In this document: positions 1 through 6,583 of the stretch, one piece after another
How the letters are laid out: each line of letters opens with the position of its first letter
How positions within the stretch are numbered: position 1 is the first letter of the stretch
Source of the DNA: a virus
Taxonomy: Duplodnaviria > Heunggongvirae > Uroviricota > Caudoviricetes
DNA: 10,636 nucleotides
Strand: one strand, 5' to 3'
Virus record (IMG/VR): IMGVR_UViG_2534682295_000015
Span: 1-10,636 of that record
Made by a program: the position numbers and the translations under genes
Notes under the pieces: generated by a model
What the model was told of the DNA's origin: nothing
What the model saw: only the letters and a program-made list of their open reading frames with translations
Database searches by the model: none

Positions 1-115
1 AAAGGCAGAGAAAGCAACTAAAGGAAGCTACATCGTAGGGCATACATCTGTTAACCAGCACGGCAATTTAACAGGAGTTTTTGTTTGCCAAAAATGGAAA
101 GGAGAACCCGGTGGC

Positions 116-868
116 GTGATTGCGGAATGTCATGTTAACTGCCTGATTGAATCAGATGATCAGGCTTATGCAAACGCTGAATTCATAGCAGAGGCTAACC
201 CGGCTACCGTGCTGGAACTGCTGGATGAACGGGAAAGAAACCAGCAATACATCAAACGCCGCGACCAGGAGAACGAGGAGATTGCGCTTACGGTTGGGAA
301 GCTGAGAGTTGAGCTGGGAGCAGCAGAGAACAACCTTATTGATAGTGAATGCCATGTTGCTGAACTGGAAGAAGCGCTACGCGATAAGCAGGCGTTACTT
401 GAAGCATCAGAGAAGCGCATAGCAGAACTGGAAGCCGAACTCGTAAGCCAAACTTACAAGTTGCCACACACGCAGTTTGAACAGATTGCTAACCTCTACG
501 AAATGCAATTTGATGACGGTCGCACTTGTGCCTTTCACACTGATGCGCAAAAGGCTGAGCAATGGCTTCAGGCGTGCGACGGAAACAGGGTTCAGGAATA
601 CGTTAAGCTGGAACGGTTGCAGAATGCGCTGTCTGGCAACTCTCCGGTAACTCCGGATGGTTGGATAAGTTGTAGTGAGCGAATGCCGGATACCAAAACA
701 GCCGTTCTTGTTGCCGTGGAGTTTGACAGGAAAGGTGACTGGCGAATGAAGTGGGCGACTTACATCCCGGGGCATCCTGACGCTAATGATGGGTGGATAA
801 TTCCTGGTGCGTCGTGGAAACCGTCACACTGGATGCCGCTACCAGAACCGCCGCAGGAGGTGAACTGA
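116..868 (+). CDS. Ead/Ea22-like prophage protein with C-terminal DUF551-like domain (possibly 5'-truncated by window edge)
   Basis: 250-codon ORF from GTG 116, with AAGGAG-like SD at about 99-104. The same frame is open back to position 2, so the true start may lie upstream of the window. N-terminal part carries the ...AEFIAEANPATVLELLDE... signature plus a coiled-coil-like E/L/A/K-rich stretch, as I recall for Ead/Ea22-like proteins. C-terminal ~70 aa (WISCSERMPDTKTAVLVAVEF...WMPLPEPP) fits the DUF551 pattern. Stop TGA 866-868 overlaps the next ATG. Confidence 0.6.
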   Translation: MIAECHVNCLIESDDQAYANAEFIAEANPATVLELLDERERNQQYIKRRDQENEEIALTVGKLRVELGAAENNLIDSECHVAELEEALRDKQALLEASEKRIAELEAELVSQTYKLPHTQFEQIANLYEMQFDDGRTCAFHTDAQKAEQWLQACDGNRVQEYVKLERLQNALSGNSPVTPDGWISCSERMPDTKTAVLVAVEFDRKGDWRMKWATYIPGHPDANDGWIIPGASWKPSHWMPLPEPPQEVN

Positions 869-1263
869 TGGAAAATGAAGGCGATAATATCATCACACTG
901 GTGCAGCCAAAGCGCGATGAAGAGAAGCTGCTGAACATTACAGTAACTGGCAGAAAAAACTACACACAACAGAGCTGTAAGCATCGGGCCATTGAGGTTC
1001 ATGAACAGGATCACGTTATCCTGTGCTTGCAGTGCGGATGTGTTGTGGACCCTTTTCAGTATGTTCTGCGGTGTGCGAACGATGGTGAGGCTGTGGTGAG
1101 AGAGATTAGACAGCTTCATAACAGACACGATCAGCTCCGAGAATCTGTTGCCAGCCTCGAGCGTGAAGAAAAGAACACCAAAGCACGGTTGCGGGCAGCA
1201 AGAACTGCAATACTGTATGCGGAAAATGACCTTAAAAATATTGAGCAGAAGGTGAATCAATGA
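868..1263 (+). CDS. Hypothetical phage protein, Cys-rich zinc-ribbon-like segment plus C-terminal coiled coil
   Basis: ATG 868 overlaps the upstream stop (ATGA) and is preceded by GGAGG at 856-860; the ORF-track start at 793 lies inside the upstream gene and is rejected. Product MENEGDNIITLVQPK... (131 aa) contains CKH-x14-CLQCGC and a charged helical tail. No family recognised. Confidence 0.55.
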   Translation: MENEGDNIITLVQPKRDEEKLLNITVTGRKNYTQQSCKHRAIEVHEQDHVILCLQCGCVVDPFQYVLRCANDGEAVVREIRQLHNRHDQLRESVASLEREEKNTKARLRAARTAILYAENDLKNIEQKVNQ

Positions 1264-1343
1264 CCTGGCCTGAAGCATTCGCAAATGTAGGAACAGTAAT
1301 GGCGGTGGTGCTGGTTGTGTATTCGATTTGTCGCTGGAGATAA
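1260..1343 (+). CDS. Possible small single-helix membrane peptide (27 aa), translationally coupled
   Basis: ATG 1260 overlaps the upstream TGA (ATGA). Product MTWPEAFANVGTVMAVVLVVYSICRWR has one hydrophobic helix. Very short, so coding status is uncertain. Confidence 0.3.
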   Translation: MTWPEAFANVGTVMAVVLVVYSICRWR

Positions 1344-1396
1344 AAACGGTTTGCGGGAAAAGGAGAGTTAAGTAGAATTGCTGCGGGTGCTTGAGG

Positions 1397-1432
1397 CTAT
1401 CTGCCTTGGGCATGAACACCAAAGGCAGATAG
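1397..1432. repeat. Imperfect inverted repeat (12-13 bp arms, ~10 nt spacer) at the left edge of the low-GC island
   Basis: CTATCTGCCTTGG (1397-1409) ... CCAAAGGCAGATAG (1419-1432) are near-perfect reverse complements (one extra T). No T-run follows on either strand, so it is not a canonical intrinsic terminator. Confidence 0.5.
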
Positions 1433-1633
1433 AGAAAAACCCACCCGACTATAAATCAAAGTGTATTACCCCCATTTGTTGGACGATGAAATGGGTTTAG
1501 TTAACTATGTCGGTATCGACATGACTAAAACAACCTTAAATTGCTCGATTAATAGACAAGTAGTTTTGAAAGATTAAATTTATGCGATCCGGTATTTTCA
1601 AGGGATAGCCTTTATGAGGTTATCTTATGGGGT

Positions 1634-1662
1634 TAAAACATCAAGAACAGTTGTGTTATAAT
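1634..1662 (+). promoter_or_regulatory. Candidate sigma70 promoter with extended -10 (TGTTATAAT) upstream of the C5-methyltransferase gene
   Basis: TGnTATAAT at 1654-1662, about 33 nt upstream of ATG 1695, with a weak -35-like TTAAAA around 1633-1638. Weak SD-like AAGAGA at 1676-1681. Sequence-based prediction only. Confidence 0.3.
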
Positions 1663-1694
1663 ACATAGAAACTAATAAGAGACGTTGCAACTAT

Positions 1695-2846
1695 ATGAAT
1701 GTAATAGATTTGTTTTCTGGCGTTGGAGGTCTAAGTCTTGGTGCTGCACGTGCTGGATTTGATGTTAAAATGGCAGTTGAAATTGATCAACATGCTATTA
1801 ATACTCACGCAATTAATTTTCCAAGAAGTTTGCACGTCCAAGAAGATGTTTCTTTACTAAATGCAGAAATAATTAAGGGTTTTTTTAAAAACGATATGCC
1901 CATAGATGGTATTATTGGCGGTCCTCCGTGCCAAGGATTTAGTTCAATAGGCAAGGGGAATCCTGATGATAGCAGGAATCAGCTTTACATGCATTTCTAC
2001 CGTTTAGTATCAGAATTACAGCCATTATTCTTTTTGGCAGAAAATGTTCCAGGTATTATGCAAGAGAAATATTCTGGCATTAGAAATAAAGCATTTAATT
2101 TGGTTAGCGGTGATTATGATATTCTTGATCCCATCAAGGTAAAAGCATCTGATTATGGTGCTCCAACTATTCGAACTAGATATTTTTTTATCGGTGTAAA
2201 AAAATCATTGAAGCTTGATATTTCAGATGAAGTATTTATGCCTAAAATGATTGATCCGGTTACTGTAAAAGATGCTTTGTATGGATTACCAGATATTATC
2301 GATGCCAATTGGCAATCAGACTCTGAGAGTTGGCGAACAATTAAAAAAGATCGAAAAGGGGGATTTTATGAAAAATTATGGGGGCAGATCCCTCGGAATG
2401 TTGGTGATACAGAATCGATCGCTAAGTTAAAAAATAATATCATATCTGGATGTACCGGAACATTACATAGCAAAATCGTCCAAGAGCGTTATGCTTCCTT
2501 ATCTTTTGGGGAAACTGATAAAATTTCAAGATCTACAAGATTAGATCCAAATGGTTTTTGCCCGACTTTAAGGGCGGGAACCGCTAGAGATAAAGGAAGC
2601 TTTCAAGCCGTCAGGCCGATCCACCCTTATCATCCAAGAGTGATTACACCAAGAGAAGCTGCTAGATTACAAGGCTTCCCTGATTGGTTTCGCTTTCATG
2701 TAACTAAATGGCATAGTTTCAGACAAATAGGAAATAGCGTGTCACCAATAGTTGCTGAATATATATTAAAGGGGCTGTACAATTTATTAAATAAAAGAGT
2801 ACAGCCCGAATATTTAAACCATAATTCTTTGGAAGTTAGGGTATAA
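1695..2846 (+). CDS. DNA (cytosine-5)-methyltransferase, Dcm-like
   Basis: 383-aa ORF with canonical C5-MTase motifs in canonical order: motif I DLFSGVGG (1707-1730), motif IV catalytic GGPPCQGFS (PCQ at 1926-1934), motif VI ENV (2040-2048), motif X-like RQIGNSVSP near the C-terminus. AT-rich codon usage matches the island. Confidence 0.9.
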   Translation: MNVIDLFSGVGGLSLGAARAGFDVKMAVEIDQHAINTHAINFPRSLHVQEDVSLLNAEIIKGFFKNDMPIDGIIGGPPCQGFSSIGKGNPDDSRNQLYMHFYRLVSELQPLFFLAENVPGIMQEKYSGIRNKAFNLVSGDYDILDPIKVKASDYGAPTIRTRYFFIGVKKSLKLDISDEVFMPKMIDPVTVKDALYGLPDIIDANWQSDSESWRTIKKDRKGGFYEKLWGQIPRNVGDTESIAKLKNNIISGCTGTLHSKIVQERYASLSFGETDKISRSTRLDPNGFCPTLRAGTARDKGSFQAVRPIHPYHPRVITPREAARLQGFPDWFRFHVTKWHSFRQIGNSVSPIVAEYILKGLYNLLNKRVQPEYLNHNSLEVRV

Positions 2847-3803
2847 CCTATAGTATTTATAATAGTTATCCCGTTCATTTTCGTTTAAAGAGAACTCTTC
2901 AGCGGCTGCCTGATATGCTTCTTTATCAGGCAGTTTACTATCTAAATTTATCTTTTCTTTAATTGTTAGTGTTGGTATTGCTATTTCTTGCACGTCTTCC
3001 CAATTTGTTGAATAAAATTGCCAGTTAGAAAGGTCGCATGCCTTAGATAACTCTATATATTCTTGTTCTGAGGAGAAAAAACCTGATATTGTCAACATGG
3101 TATGACTGCCATCATTATATTGATTTAAGGATAATGGGTAATACTGAATCTTATCCTTACGTCCTGAAAGACCACGTTCTATTGCTGATCTAAAAGCGTT
3201 TGTAATAATTCGTATTAAAAGAGCTTTAATCTTACGATCTGAAAGATCTGCATTTGATATCTGAAGATTAAAATCAAGATACTTTTTCCCAAGCAATGAT
3301 TTTAATGAATTAATAAAAGCTTCTTTAAAAATATCTAAACTTTCTCCAACTCTACGTTGGTAATAAGAACTAGGATTTATGGGGAAGGTGACCTTCAAAA
3401 TATCAAAAGAGCTTACTTTAGTACTTAGTAAGTGTATATCATCTAGATCCGTTTGTATTTTTTTCGGGGAGGCATAGTCTAACCATGTTATTGATGGTTT
3501 AGAAAAACTATAATCAAGAATAAAGTCATGAGCTGATATTAGCTTACAATCAATACAATTATAAGGCAAATTATATTTTTGTCTGATGTGAGTAGACTCT
3601 TGTTCTTCGAGAGAAATCATATCAGAAAGAGCGATACGATTATGCATGATTCTAAAATCTTCAAGCATCGGACCACCAAAACCTATATATGTATATTCTT
3701 GAATATTTAGTCTTTTGCTTAAGAGGTTTAGGCTTTCGAGAAAAATCTCTCTATCAATAGACTTATTATGCCTTAAGTGATAGGGAATGTATTGTCCAGA
3801 CAT
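2814..3803 (-). CDS. Hypothetical protein (~329 aa), downstream partner of the GHKL ATPase; function unknown
   Basis: Minus-strand ORF; ATG at 3803-3801 overlaps the upstream TGA (TGATG), with an in-frame GTG one codon further upstream (3806). GAGGTG SD-like sequence about 7 nt upstream. Product MSGQYIPYHLRHNKSIDREIFLESL...EYTYIGFGGPMLEDF... has no catalytic motif I can assign. Its 3' end overlaps the convergent MTase 3' end by 33 bp (2814-2846). Confidence 0.7.
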   Translation of the reverse strand: MSGQYIPYHLRHNKSIDREIFLESLNLLSKRLNIQEYTYIGFGGPMLEDFRIMHNRIALSDMISLEEQESTHIRQKYNLPYNCIDCKLISAHDFILDYSFSKPSITWLDYASPKKIQTDLDDIHLLSTKVSSFDILKVTFPINPSSYYQRRVGESLDIFKEAFINSLKSLLGKKYLDFNLQISNADLSDRKIKALLIRIITNAFRSAIERGLSGRKDKIQYYPLSLNQYNDGSHTMLTISGFFSSEQEYIELSKACDLSNWQFYSTNWEDVQEIAIPTLTIKEKINLDSKLPDKEAYQAAAEEFSLNENERDNYYKYYRLYPNFQRIMV

Positions 3804-5194
3804 CACTTCACCTCTTCAATCACCGTATCAAAGCATTGCATCCCCACATCAGAAGCGCTAGCATCTTCATGTCCAAAGAAATATTTAGATAAAATTTTAA
3901 CATCTTCTTTCTCTCTGGTGAAGATTATTCGTACAGTAGAGCTTTTTTTTACTGGGGTAGGCAGCTTAGGTGTATATCGCCACTCATTTTTGTTTCTATT
4001 AGGGTTGGACCAGTTATTTTTTTTATCTTCTGGAGTTGATTGTGGGGTAATTTCAAATAAAGATTGAGCTTCATGTGACTGAGCTGACTTAAGTAATTTT
4101 TTCCCTTCTTCAAGATGCTCACCTTTCCACTGATTGGTGAATCGAATAAAATGCATCATCCCTTCAATCATTTTATTTCGTACATCATTGTACAATGTAG
4201 AACTAAGATCGACACCTCGTTTCGTTGTTGTTATTGGTAATTTTTCTGGGTTTTTACTGGTAAAGCGAACAACCCCAGAAATTGCTATAAATTGGGTATG
4301 AAACCTTGGTACATTAGCAAAGCCCCAACCTGTGAGATGTGTCTTATCACAATATAGAACAACGCGGTCATTGCAAATGACAGTCCATCCAGCATCATCA
4401 GAACTCCTTTTTTCTAAAACATCATCATTGTCATCTTCTAAATTTTTATAGAAGCCAACAACTAAATCGATATCAACATCGTCTATTTTAGCTTTATATA
4501 TGTATGGTTCTATTTTAGAATGATCAGTTATGATGTTAATCGGATTATGTTCAACAACAACTCCATTTAATTCTATTTTAAATCCTTTTTGAATAATAAA
4601 TGACAATGAGTGTTTTATCTGTAAAAAGAGATCAGTAAGATATGTGCTCTCATTAAATTTTTGTGCCACATTAGAATGGAGTTTTTTTATCTCTATAGTT
4701 GTGCCTGTTGGATTTTTGTTATCATAGTCACTCTCGTGCATCGGTATTTTCCAACCATCACCATCGATCCAATCAGGTGTTATATCTACAGTGAATGCGC
4801 CATCGGGATTATTCGATTGTATTGAGCAATCTCTACCCATTTTAAAAATGGCTCTTTTCATACCAATACCATAGACGCCAACGGTGCCTTCATTTTCTTC
4901 TTCTTTTTGATGGGGTCGTCCCATTTTAAAAGCATATTCTCGGAAGCTTTTAGGGATACCTCCGCAATTGTCTTCTATAATAAAGACATCTTTATTAATC
5001 GTAAGTTTCGCATAAAATCCTTCATATGGTTTTGAAGTTTTTTTTGTGTCTTTTATTGTACGTAAAGCCCCATCGACGCAGTTATCAAGCAGATCAAGTA
5101 TGGCATCGTTTAAGTCGATATCTCGAGTTAGCATACTTACAAAAAATCTTTTACTAGGACTAAAGTCTGCTGTTGGAGTCGTGTTCTCAGTCAT
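3803..5194 (-). CDS. GHKL-superfamily (Bergerat-fold, MutL/MORC/Hsp90-like) ATPase, 463 aa
   Basis: N-terminal region carries the three ATP-binding motifs in canonical order: N-box-like DLLDNCVDGA (aa 34-43, nt 5066-5095), G1 box EDNCGGI (aa 74-80, nt 4955-4975), G2 box GVYGIGMK (aa 106-113, nt 4856-4879). The C-terminal ~300 aa are unassigned. ATG at 5194-5192. Confidence 0.8.
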   Translation of the reverse strand: MTENTTPTADFSPSKRFFVSMLTRDIDLNDAILDLLDNCVDGALRTIKDTKKTSKPYEGFYAKLTINKDVFIIEDNCGGIPKSFREYAFKMGRPHQKEEENEGTVGVYGIGMKRAIFKMGRDCSIQSNNPDGAFTVDITPDWIDGDGWKIPMHESDYDNKNPTGTTIEIKKLHSNVAQKFNESTYLTDLFLQIKHSLSFIIQKGFKIELNGVVVEHNPINIITDHSKIEPYIYKAKIDDVDIDLVVGFYKNLEDDNDDVLEKRSSDDAGWTVICNDRVVLYCDKTHLTGWGFANVPRFHTQFIAISGVVRFTSKNPEKLPITTTKRGVDLSSTLYNDVRNKMIEGMMHFIRFTNQWKGEHLEEGKKLLKSAQSHEAQSLFEITPQSTPEDKKNNWSNPNRNKNEWRYTPKLPTPVKKSSTVRIIFTREKEDVKILSKYFFGHEDASASDVGMQCFDTVIEEVK

Positions 5195-5246
5195 AATTTA
5201 CTCTCTATGTGTTTGGGAAAATAAATACCTTAAGTGCAAATTGTTG

Positions 5247-5274
5247 ATTTTAAACGCTTCGCATGCGAAGTCAA
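5247..5274 (-). promoter_or_regulatory. Candidate sigma70 promoter of the GHKL operon (TTGACT - 16 nt - TAAAAT on minus strand) with an embedded 14-bp palindrome
   Basis: Reverse complement of 5240-5280 reads ...cgTTGACTtcgcatgcgaagcgttTAAAATcaacaa... : -35 TTGACT (plus 5269-5274), 16-nt spacer, -10 TAAAAT (plus 5247-5252), about 50 nt upstream of ATG 5194. The perfect palindrome CTTCGCATGCGAAG (5257-5270) fills the spacer and overlaps the -35. Confidence 0.35.
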
Positions 5275-5368
5275 CGATGTTAAGAAAGAAAGTGCATGTG
5301 ATCTAACAGTATGTTTTTAAAAAAAGATTAGCTTTATGAGAATTCAGGACTGAATCCCGTGAGAGGAA

Positions 5369-5384
5369 AATAACATATGTTATT
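5369..5384. repeat. Perfect 16-bp palindrome AATAACATATGTTATT in the island's regulatory region
   Basis: Read directly: the sequence equals its own reverse complement. Followed by two TTGTTGCA direct repeats at 5383-5390 and 5410-5417. Confidence 0.6.
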
Positions 5385-5693
5385 GTTGCATTGCTGTGTT
5401 GTTTGGGATTTGTTGCACCATTCTGGCGTTGGTATATCTAGTTCGTTGTTCATTTTGTTAATTGTACAACAGGCAGACAACAGAGAGCTTTTAGCCTAGT
5501 TAGCTTACGAAATTAAACAACTAAGATTATCGGCGGGGAGTGGTCACCGCTACTCTTTGGCTAGGAGACTTCAACGCAACCGCACACAACCAGCTTCGGC
5601 GGGTTTTGTTTTTTCCTGGCATTCTGGTTTACAATTTGCGTGCTAGCTTGAACAACTGGCATCTGCTGCACTGCGCCATCGAGAGATTGAGAA

Positions 5694-6293
5694 ATGGCGC
5701 ATATACAACTGGTCAAACAAACTTCTTCTGGTTTACTTCTCCCGGCGACGCCGGAGAGTTGCGATTTTCTGCATCAAATCAAAATAGGTGAGTGGATACA
5801 CGCAGATTTTAAGCGTGTGCGTAACTACGCATTCCACAAGCGTTTTTTCAAACTCCTGCAACTGGGATTCGATTACTGGACTCCGGTCGGTGGGGCGATC
5901 ACGCCTCGCGAACGAGAACTGCTGTCTGGTTTCGTTGATTACCTGTGCGAATCAGTTGGTCGGGAACACACGCCAGCCCTGAGTGATGCCGCAGAGCAAT
6001 ACCTTAACACCGTTGCGACTCGTAGAACCCGGGATACGGCGTTGCTAAAGTCGTTTGAGGCTTTCCGCGAGTGGGTAACCATTCAGGCCGGATTTTACAC
6101 CGAGCATATTTATCCGGACGGTAGCCGTGGGCGTCGGGCAAAATCCATCGCTTTTGCGAATATGGACGAAGTCGAGTTTCAGCAGGTTTATAAATCTGTA
6201 CTGAATGTGCTGTGGAACTGGATTCTGTTCCGTAAATTCTCCTCTCAGGAGGAAGTTGAAAATGTGGCCGCACAACTACTGGAGTTTGCGTAA
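5694..6293 (+). CDS. Conserved lambdoid nin-region protein (199 aa), function unknown; resembles the DUF1367 family as I recall it
   Basis: ORF with ATG 5694, GC content and codon usage matching the phage backbone. Stop TAA 6291-6293 overlaps the next ATG (TAATG). Family assignment is from memory and unverified. Confidence 0.7.
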   Translation: MAHIQLVKQTSSGLLLPATPESCDFLHQIKIGEWIHADFKRVRNYAFHKRFFKLLQLGFDYWTPVGGAITPRERELLSGFVDYLCESVGREHTPALSDAAEQYLNTVATRRTRDTALLKSFEAFREWVTIQAGFYTEHIYPDGSRGRRAKSIAFANMDEVEFQQVYKSVLNVLWNWILFRKFSSQEEVENVAAQLLEFA

Positions 6294-6583
6294 TGGTGAA
6301 TTTACGTAAAGCGGCTAAAGGCCAGATATGCCAGATCAGAATCCCTGGCTACTGCAATCACAATCCCGAAACCTCTGTGCTGGCGCATTACAGGCTGGCG
6401 GGAACGTGCGGAACAGCGATAAAGCCACACGATATGCAGGCAGCGATTGCCTGTAACTCATGCCACGATTTAATCGACGGGAGAGTAAAAACCAGCGATT
6501 ACACCAAAGAAGAATTGCGCCTGATGCATGCAGAAGGTGTTTTTCGCACACAAGAGATCTGGAGAAAGGACGGTTATTTATGA
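6293..6583 (+). CDS. YbcO-like (DUF1364) putative zinc-binding nuclease of lambdoid phages
   Basis: 96-aa product with CQIRIPGYCNHNPETSVLAH...CNSCHDLIDG (CxxxxxxxC ... CxxCH), which resembles prophage YbcO-type proteins as I recall them. Coupled to both neighbours by overlapping stop/start codons. Confidence 0.6.
   Translation: MVNLRKAAKGQICQIRIPGYCNHNPETSVLAHYRLAGTCGTAIKPHDMQAAIACNSCHDLIDGRVKTSDYTKEELRLMHAEGVFRTQEIWRKDGYL

Follow-up and report, generated by a model that had tools for sequence, protein, structure and literature searches.

We found that a low-GC island in the viral DNA analysed here (Caudoviricetes; IMG/VR record IMGVR_UViG_2534682295_000015, positions 1 to 10,636; the whole stretch of 10,636 nucleotides is hereafter called the window) holds three genes only, according to its open reading frame (ORF) listing, and that these encode a Dcm-type DNA cytosine-C5 methyltransferase (hereafter Dcm), a MORC-type GHKL + S5 ATPase and a member of protein family PF20553. 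This three-gene set, or cassette, may constitute a mobile defence module of the MORC-linked restriction-modification kind, gated by methylation, dependent on ATP and S-adenosylmethionine (SAM) and lacking a recognisable nuclease, a reading to which we give a probability of about 45%. It is preferred because the enzymes look active, the ATPase and its PF20553 partner form a tight unit, Dcm is nearly obligate outside the cyanobacteria and the placement of the cassette is of a defence type; genomic context is the sole basis of the functional assignment. Iyer, Abhiman & Aravind (2008, PMC2292703) predicted that MORC and paraMORC GHKL ATPases whose genes neighbour those of cytosine methylases and Vsr belong to restriction-modification operons, and the general MORC-methylase association has thus been in print since that year.

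The Dcm gene (1695-2846, plus strand; 383 aa; PF00145, TIGR00675) is convergent with a minus-strand operon consisting of the ATPase gene (3803-5194; 463 aa; HATPase_c_3, with a conserved C-terminal helical extension) and, downstream of it, the PF20553 gene (2814-3803; Pfam assignment; 329 aa from the ATG, with an upstream GTG start that would extend it to 3806). The ATPase stop codon and the PF20553 start codon overlap in a TGATG read at 3803-3807 on the minus strand, and the two genes are predicted to be translationally coupled; a tight junction or overlap between them is also present in most related loci. At the other end of the operon, the 3' ends of the PF20553 and Dcm genes overlap by 33 bp (2814-2846). 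A preliminary description, made from the letters of the window, had noted a Dcm-like methylase gene convergent, with overlapping 3' ends, with an operon for a GHKL ATPase and a partner, and all three ORFs and the 33-bp overlap were confirmed here.

Judged from its motifs, Dcm is probably an intact C5 DNA methyltransferase. It matches PF00145 (2.6e-61) over residues 1-361 and TIGR00675 (9.6e-46), and motifs I, IV (PCQ), VI (ENV), VIII (RxR), IX and X (GNSV) are all present, the PCQ including the Cys79 that had been proposed as the catalytic residue. Among 73 cassette-linked homologues, the catalytic motifs are conserved and the target-recognition region is conserved only in part. Residues 2-366 are identical to a crystallised protein, PDB 3G7U, and the next-best solved relative is M.HaeIII (1.5e-34). 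Deducing the target site of Dcm from its solved relatives was considered and dropped, because the match to M.HaeIII is confined to the N-terminal catalytic half.

The 463-aa protein is a MORC-like GHKL + S5 ATPase. It matches HATPase_c_3 above threshold (2.9e-9), and N38, the D75-N-C-G-G and G106-x-Y-G-I-G segments and flanking residues are invariant in 30 homologues that share about 45% identity across phyla, in agreement with the Bergerat fold and the N38 and D75 residues proposed earlier. When a profile of the family was compared with all PDB sequences, only MORC3 and MORC4 were recovered, both weakly (E 0.04-0.2); the best structural matches were MORC3, SMCHD1 and MORC2. Thus, the broader "MORC/MutL-like" label first attached to this protein held as far as GHKL is concerned, and the profile and structural matches narrow it specifically to MORC-like. 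C-terminal to the GHKL part lies an S5-fold domain with the conserved basic residue in place, and on the strands of this domain the segment G269-W-T-V-I-C-N-D-R-V-V fits the MORC signature GhXhhpXXRhl quoted in PMC2292703. The protein ends in about 130 more residues, a conserved helical stretch without a recognisable domain, and may instead be a paraMORC1, a type with a "conserved C-terminal extension"; we do not choose between MORC proper and paraMORC1 because the fit to the signature is to a quoted pattern and not to the authors' alignment. Unlike the eukaryotic proteins MORC2, MORC3 and SMCHD1, the cassette ATPase has no CW, coiled-coil or hinge domain, and its sequence similarity to eukaryotic MORC ATPases is marginal (E 0.04); it has instead its own C-terminal helical domain and a partner of methyltransferase fold.

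That partner had been described as an unknown protein with no identifiable nuclease motif. No nuclease was found in it here either, but the protein is not without relatives, as it is a full-length member of PF20553 (2e-89; 300.4 bits against a cut-off of 27; residues 2-329 aligned to model positions 1-308 of 309). This family, Methyltransf_35, is labelled "putative O-methyltransferase" in both Pfam and RefSeq; a literature search revealed no evidence behind the "O-" in the name. The structural model suggests a class-I SAM-methyltransferase fold, Rossmann-like and seven-stranded, with SAM-binding features retained: beta-1 is followed by a glycine-rich loop, and beta-2 ends in an acidic residue. 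SAM binding looks preserved in the family, since among 147 diverse members D49 and the acidic residue ending beta-2 (E66) do not vary and conservation of the glycine-rich loop is 80-95%. Motif IV reads W-L-D-Y and thus differs both from the DPPY typical of amino-methyltransferases and from the PCQ typical of C5 enzymes. In addition, an N-terminal motif of basic and aromatic residues (Y8, R11, K14 and R18) is invariant, as are D109 and E283, and K137 is partly conserved. The family comprises 2,215 representatives at 50% identity, and the best 150 of these, about 320-345 aa long, all stand alone, none being fused to another domain.

The ATPase family was sought in a collection of about 100,000 genomes, each representing a species, and 343 loci were recovered, the best 80 of which were analysed. 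The PF20553 gene lies directly downstream of the ATPase gene in 77 of the 80, and a Dcm gene closely related to that of the window (median identity 51%) is immediately adjacent in 59, preceding the other two in the order Dcm-ATPase-PF20553 in 30, convergent as in the window in 23 and trailing in 6. Nine further loci have a Dcm gene that is not adjacent but lies within 10 kb. The 12 loci without an apparent Dcm gene comprise nine from cyanobacteria, two cut by contig ends (one of them showing the tail of a Dcm gene at the edge) and one with a short N-terminal Dcm fragment; outside the cyanobacteria, therefore, every locus with enough flank has Dcm within 10 kb, save the one with the fragment. 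Sampling from the Dcm side gave a similar picture, three of four homologues (57-66% identity) lying in the same three-gene set and the fourth beside a longer GHKL protein. Pairwise identities of the ATPases were correlated with those of the PF20553 proteins at r=0.85 and with those of Dcm at r=0.49 (Mantel p ~0.001). The ATPase and the PF20553 protein thus form a tight unit, co-inherited and co-evolving, and outside the cyanobacteria this pair almost always travels with a dedicated Dcm subfamily. Because the same set recurs in dozens of unrelated genomes, the arrangement is not a matter of chance, and the view that it is a real module, conserved and horizontally mobile and made up of a C5 methylase and a Bergerat-fold ATPase operon, was borne out. 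A census of neighbouring genes by all-against-all clustering at 83 loci showed that Vsr is the only other recurrent neighbour (29 of the 83) and that there is no fourth conserved gene apart from it; the window itself contains no Vsr gene.

Two loci may hold altered forms of the cassette. In a Gemmataceae metagenome-assembled genome (L077, 9766-9957), a fragment corresponding to about 45-64 residues of the Dcm N-terminus is found just upstream of an intact ATPase-PF20553 pair and may represent a natural loss of the methylase or an assembly artefact. On plasmid pSymA of Sinorhizobium meliloti (L114, 1599-11009), divergent ATPase-like and PF20553-like ORFs occur within a few kb of a Dcm gene and a Type II enzyme, in a stretch for which no annotation is listed; the cassette may have decayed or been rearranged there.

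The places in which the cassette is found point to defence or to conflict between mobile elements. The island of the window (1464-5570, no strand assigned; bounded by the drop in GC and by breakpoints in flank homology) is foreign DNA in a variable cargo slot of a Rac-like lambdoid prophage. Its foreign origin follows from the GC contrast, the island having a GC fraction of 0.31-0.37 and the flanks 0.48-0.57, and from the breakpoints, homology to related prophages extending up to about position 1463 on the left and resuming at 5571 on the right. The flanking genes are those of a Rac-like lambdoid prophage (Ead/Ea22-DUF551, DUF1367, YbcO and DUF1133/Q-like). Of 5426 complete Escherichia coli genomes, 172 carry the whole island with an identity of at least 99%; these are mostly from Shiga-toxin-producing strains (O157, O111 and others), and the remaining genomes match at most the last 58 bases of the island query, which correspond to the shared right flank. 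The island is thus all-or-none in E. coli, at about 100% identity, and none of the 5426 genomes has lost Dcm while keeping the pair.

In E. coli, the slot lies between DUF977 and DUF1367 and is variable among related prophages, homologues of the flank being present in 1329 of the 5426 genomes. Its cargo in other prophages includes the Iet anti-phage system (IetA/IetS; L106), a SIR2 protein (L104) and an sce7726/beta-family pair accompanied by hokD and a Doc toxin (L105); further strains have only hokD there, or genes of no known kind. The slot upstream of DUF1367 therefore looks like an unlisted hotspot of defence and toxin genes in Rac-like prophages. Elsewhere, a P2-like prophage of Klebsiella carries the three-gene set in the interval from gpA to the portal gene, which corresponds to the P2 old/tin defence hotspot (reported by Rousset et al. 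2022). In a P4-like satellite the set adjoins an HNH/ScoMcrA-SBD protein and Abi_2, and in the Pseudomonas filamentous (Pf) phage PfAC20 it lies at the accessory end; at other loci it is near TacAT, DUF4917, integrases or transposases. Fourteen viral contigs in IMG/VR carry the cassette, and many cassette loci are chromosomal with phage genes absent nearby. With regard to the defence interpretation offered in the preliminary description, these contexts, together with the placement of the pair in a DISARM operon described below, speak in its favour; the idea that the methylase protects against the ATPase operon is plausible but is weakened by the occurrence of the pair without a linked Dcm in cyanobacteria and beside an N6-adenine methylase in that operon.

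The remaining features of the island are regulatory candidates. Directly 3' of the PF20553 stop codon and within the 3' end of the Dcm gene, a stable hairpin (2772-2807, minus strand; inverted repeat I16) has a predicted RNA folding energy of -17.2 kcal/mol (z -3.6 against shuffled sequences) and is followed by a weak U-tract; it is a possible terminator of the minus-strand operon, located inside the convergent overlap. A consensus scan revealed promoter-like sites upstream of Dcm (1633-1662, plus strand; TTAAAA-18-TATAAT with an extended -10 TG) and upstream of the ATPase operon (5247-5274, minus strand; TTGACT-16-TAAAAT). Such sites are not above chance in the region (19 found, 17.4 expected), and it is the position of these two that suggests a function. 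Small ORFs resembling C-protein regulators, repeats and known RNAs were sought in the non-coding ends of the island, with nothing convincing being found.

The surrounding prophage is a mosaic, because its left 1.2 kb and parts of its right end derive from other prophage lineages: the island and right flank are common to genomes from position 1260 on, and coverage of the window by any one complete E. coli genome does not exceed 71%. Its late-regulatory region contains a gene of the N6_N4_Mtase family, unrelated to Dcm (7707-8765, plus strand; PF01555, 2.4e-43), so that the prophage holds two DNA methyltransferases. Further along are tRNA-Met (8806-8881) and tRNA-Arg (8962-9038), and downstream of these the small RNA STnc100 (9148-9356, plus strand; 175 bits) and the anti-GcvB small RNA AgvB (9358-9417, minus strand; 56.6 bits, barely over the gathering score).

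Searches of the two minus-strand proteins against Pfam, NCBIfam and PADLOC at E<=1, PHROGs and the PDB sequences, both singly and as profiles, revealed no nuclease or other known domain except HATPase_c_3 and PF20553, and PHROGs lists both proteins as unknown. Dcm matches only the generic PADLOC models MTase_II, DruM and DrmMII, as any Dcm-type methylase would. The preliminary description could not match the cassette to any named anti-phage system; this stands in so far as PADLOC v2.0.0 has no model for the pair, and needs qualifying in that the general kind was described in 2008 (PMC2292703). A paper on E. coli defence islands (PMC10121019) does not mention the three-gene set.

The operons of PMC2292703 resemble the cassette in having a GHKL + S5 ATPase with intact ATP motifs, in their linkage to cytosine methylase and Vsr genes and in their sporadic, laterally transferred distribution in bacteria and archaea. 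In that paper, which presents predictions without experiments, the operon partners are helicases or proteins with restriction-endonuclease-fold, HNH or TIR domains, and a minority class has a methylase and no helicase. However, the text does not describe a partner of methyltransferase fold, whereas in the cassette the PF20553 protein is obligate and no nuclease is conserved. The Mza system likewise combines a cytosine methylase with a GHKL/MORC ATPase in a predicted defence operon, but MzaB and the cassette ATPase match only faintly, far below threshold (E 0.037).

With Type II C5 systems such as HaeIII, the cassette shares a convergent layout in which the 3' ends of the methylase and effector genes overlap, and a standard Dcm-type methylase whose closest solved characterised relative is M.HaeIII, and in a few related loci a real Type II enzyme adjoins the same Dcm. 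A Type II system would also possess a cognate restriction endonuclease, recognisable by its nuclease fold or motif, and none was found in the island. The effector side of the cassette, in contrast to that of Type II systems, has no nuclease fold and would need ATP and SAM; it is also conserved at about 45% identity across phyla, and Type II endonucleases are usually far less conserved.

BREX and DISARM restrict phages without an essential recognisable restriction endonuclease. They combine a methyltransferase that marks self with ATPase components, as the cassette would. By analogy, the cassette would be closer to BREX and DISARM than to classical Type II systems in acting without an essential dedicated nuclease. 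It differs from them in having only three genes, in that the PADLOC models miss the pair, with no homology found, and in that its ATPase is of the GHKL/MORC type and not a helicase or a BrxC-type P-loop protein.

In several related loci, the core genes are accompanied by extra partners. In one (L037, 9977-13726), Dcm and a genuine Type II enzyme (PADLOC REase_II, 1e-127) come after the ATPase gene, and PF20553 is missing, an arrangement that led us to consider the PF20553 protein as a simple replacement for a nuclease; this idea was weakened by two loci (L085, 7732-12390, and L084) in which Dcm comes first, then a Type II enzyme or a weaker match to one, then the ATPase and PF20553, and in which the Type II enzyme and the pair therefore co-occur. 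In two others (L086 and L069), the ATPase is paired with a UvrD/GajB-like helicase. A second, paralogous GHKL protein of 563-650 aa lies beside the same Dcm subfamily in six loci (L020, L042, L065, L079, L080 and L117). In the member that was scanned (L020, 13752-15440), its C-terminal half matches PD-Lambda-5_A (4e-23), and in L117 it occurs with Dcm and no PF20553; Dcm and the longer paralogue may thus be a separate two-gene system. The recurrent theme of these variants is a dedicated Dcm ringed by at least one ATP-dependent or nucleolytic partner, which fits Dcm as a shared self-mark serving several effectors.

If the cassette is a methylation-gated defence module, Dcm would mark resident DNA as self, and the MORC-type ATPase, in complex with the PF20553 protein, would dimerise or clamp on ATP in the manner of MORC and MutL proteins. 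The PF20553 subunit of this complex, SAM-bound and of a base-flipping type, would engage DNA lacking the mark, and the complex might then interfere with the unmarked DNA, trapping it, compacting it or blocking its replication; alternatively, it might recruit a co-encoded partner, such partners being Vsr, a helicase and a Type II nuclease. It is plausible that the methylase protects against the ATPase operon.

Several observations weigh against this scheme. The intact pair occurs in about nine cyanobacterial loci with no C5 methylase within 10 kb, although an unlinked methylase is possible. On a Microvirga plasmid (L102, 449-12987), the pair lies inside a class 1 DISARM operon between drmMI and drmA, with genes overlapping or nearly abutting, and there it follows DrmMI, an N6-adenine methylase that makes N6-methyladenine and not 5-methylcytosine. 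It is hard to picture a highly conserved pair that reads both marks directly, and the product of DrmMI suggests that the pair may work through the methylase or SAM and not by reading a mark. In structure, the PF20553 protein comes closest to RNA methyltransferases (RsmD, Trm1, RlmI, TrmN/Trm14, KsgA/Erm and TlyA). The island has no nuclease, toxin, TIR or membrane effector, and none is conserved at the 83 loci except Vsr. Neither the ATPase nor the PF20553 protein matched any family of PADLOC-DB v2.0.0 at E<=1, with BREX, DISARM, Druantia, MADS, Mza and PD-Lambda-5 among the systems covered, and no publication naming or experimentally testing the three-gene set was found in the open-access literature.

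The main rival follows from some of these points. The presence of a Type II enzyme in L085 and L084 implies that the pair could be an accessory of DNA methyltransferases instead of an effector, working with whichever methylase is linked to it; the pair could regulate or target methylation or, in a guard version, could sense interference with methylation or the SAM supply (for example by phage SAM lyases or Ocr-like inhibitors) through its SAM-binding subunit and trigger a MORC-driven response. The order of methylase, ATPase and PF20553 is indeed found both with Dcm (30 of 80 loci) and with the unrelated DrmMI, in a DISARM operon that has its own effectors; the pair stands alongside a complete Type II restriction-modification pair in the two loci just named; and the PF20553 protein retains SAM-binding residues but has neither of the catalytic motifs, DPPY and PCQ, by which known DNA methyltransferases are recognised. 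However, most loci consist of Dcm and the pair only, which would leave a lone methylase to be assisted or guarded, no downstream killing effector is encoded, and the existence of a Dcm subfamily that is dedicated to the pair and co-evolves with it suggests a self-contained unit and not a plug-in. We regard this explanation as unlikely on balance, though as the strongest of the alternatives.

A less probable explanation is that the cassette only modifies DNA, both that of the mobile element and that of the host, to the benefit of the element, Dcm and perhaps the PF20553 protein (as a second nucleic-acid methyltransferase) altering the DNA so that it evades restriction and the MORC ATPase acting as a DNA-loading or processivity factor. 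Two proteins of methyltransferase fold and no nuclease would suit such a role, as would carriers that include lambdoid, P2-like and filamentous phages and a satellite; orphan methylases are, moreover, common in phages, and the window contains another at 7707-8765. Such an explanation accounts poorly for the many chromosomal loci without phage genes nearby, for the pair embedded in a DISARM defence operon and for the defence or toxin genes that occupy the slots of the cassette elsewhere, and we know of no precedent for an orphan methylase that depends on an ATPase.

It is improbable that the cassette acts by abortive infection, with the PF20553 protein being an RNA methyltransferase (of rRNA or tRNA, possibly a 2'-O enzyme) that is unleashed by the MORC ATPase to stop translation and Dcm being a passenger or regulator. 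The best structural matches and the "putative O-methyltransferase" label agree with this possibility, and K14, D109 and E283 together with the partial K137 loosely recall, at the level of sequence, the K-D-K-E tetrad of 2'-O-methyltransferases, but K137 is not invariant, MORC-type ATPases act on DNA, and it would be left unexplained why a DNA cytosine methylase is almost always linked to the pair and co-evolves with it.

MutL stimulates Vsr, and the MORC ATPase might similarly be a MutL-like helper of Vsr in the very-short-patch repair of T:G mismatches arising when 5-methylcytosine is deaminated, with the PF20553 protein recognising the lesion or site. This is the least probable of the explanations: Vsr is the one other recurrent neighbour, UvrD-like helicases adjoin some variants and a MutL-Vsr parallel is drawn in PMC2292703, but two thirds of the loci, including the window, have no Vsr, E. 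coli already possesses MutL and Vsr, and neither the placement in mobile-element cargo slots and DISARM nor a SAM-binding methyltransferase fold finds an explanation in repair.

The cassette is compact (three genes, 4.1 kb), widespread and present in E. coli, and one of its components has been crystallised (3G7U), making it unusually tractable. Nuclease-free defence against phages, if the cassette provides it, would represent a new effector logic for methylation-based immunity and provide an experimental handle on how a MORC-type clamp is coupled to DNA methylation; a new substrate for the methyltransferase-fold partner would mean a new enzyme activity, and even if the pair proved to be an ordinary accessory of orphan methylases, the function of a large conserved gene family would be settled. 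MORC ATPases are major silencers of transposons and of methylated DNA in plants and animals. A more speculative and rather doubtful form of the defence reading is a nuclease-free MORC immunity, in which the methyltransferase-fold protein would act as a SAM-bound "reader" that guides the MORC ATPase to clamp topologically, compact or silence unmethylated incoming DNA. If true, such immunity would be a prokaryotic counterpart, and a possible ancestor, of eukaryotic silencing by MORC proteins and DNA methylation, with the logic of the methyl mark inverted.

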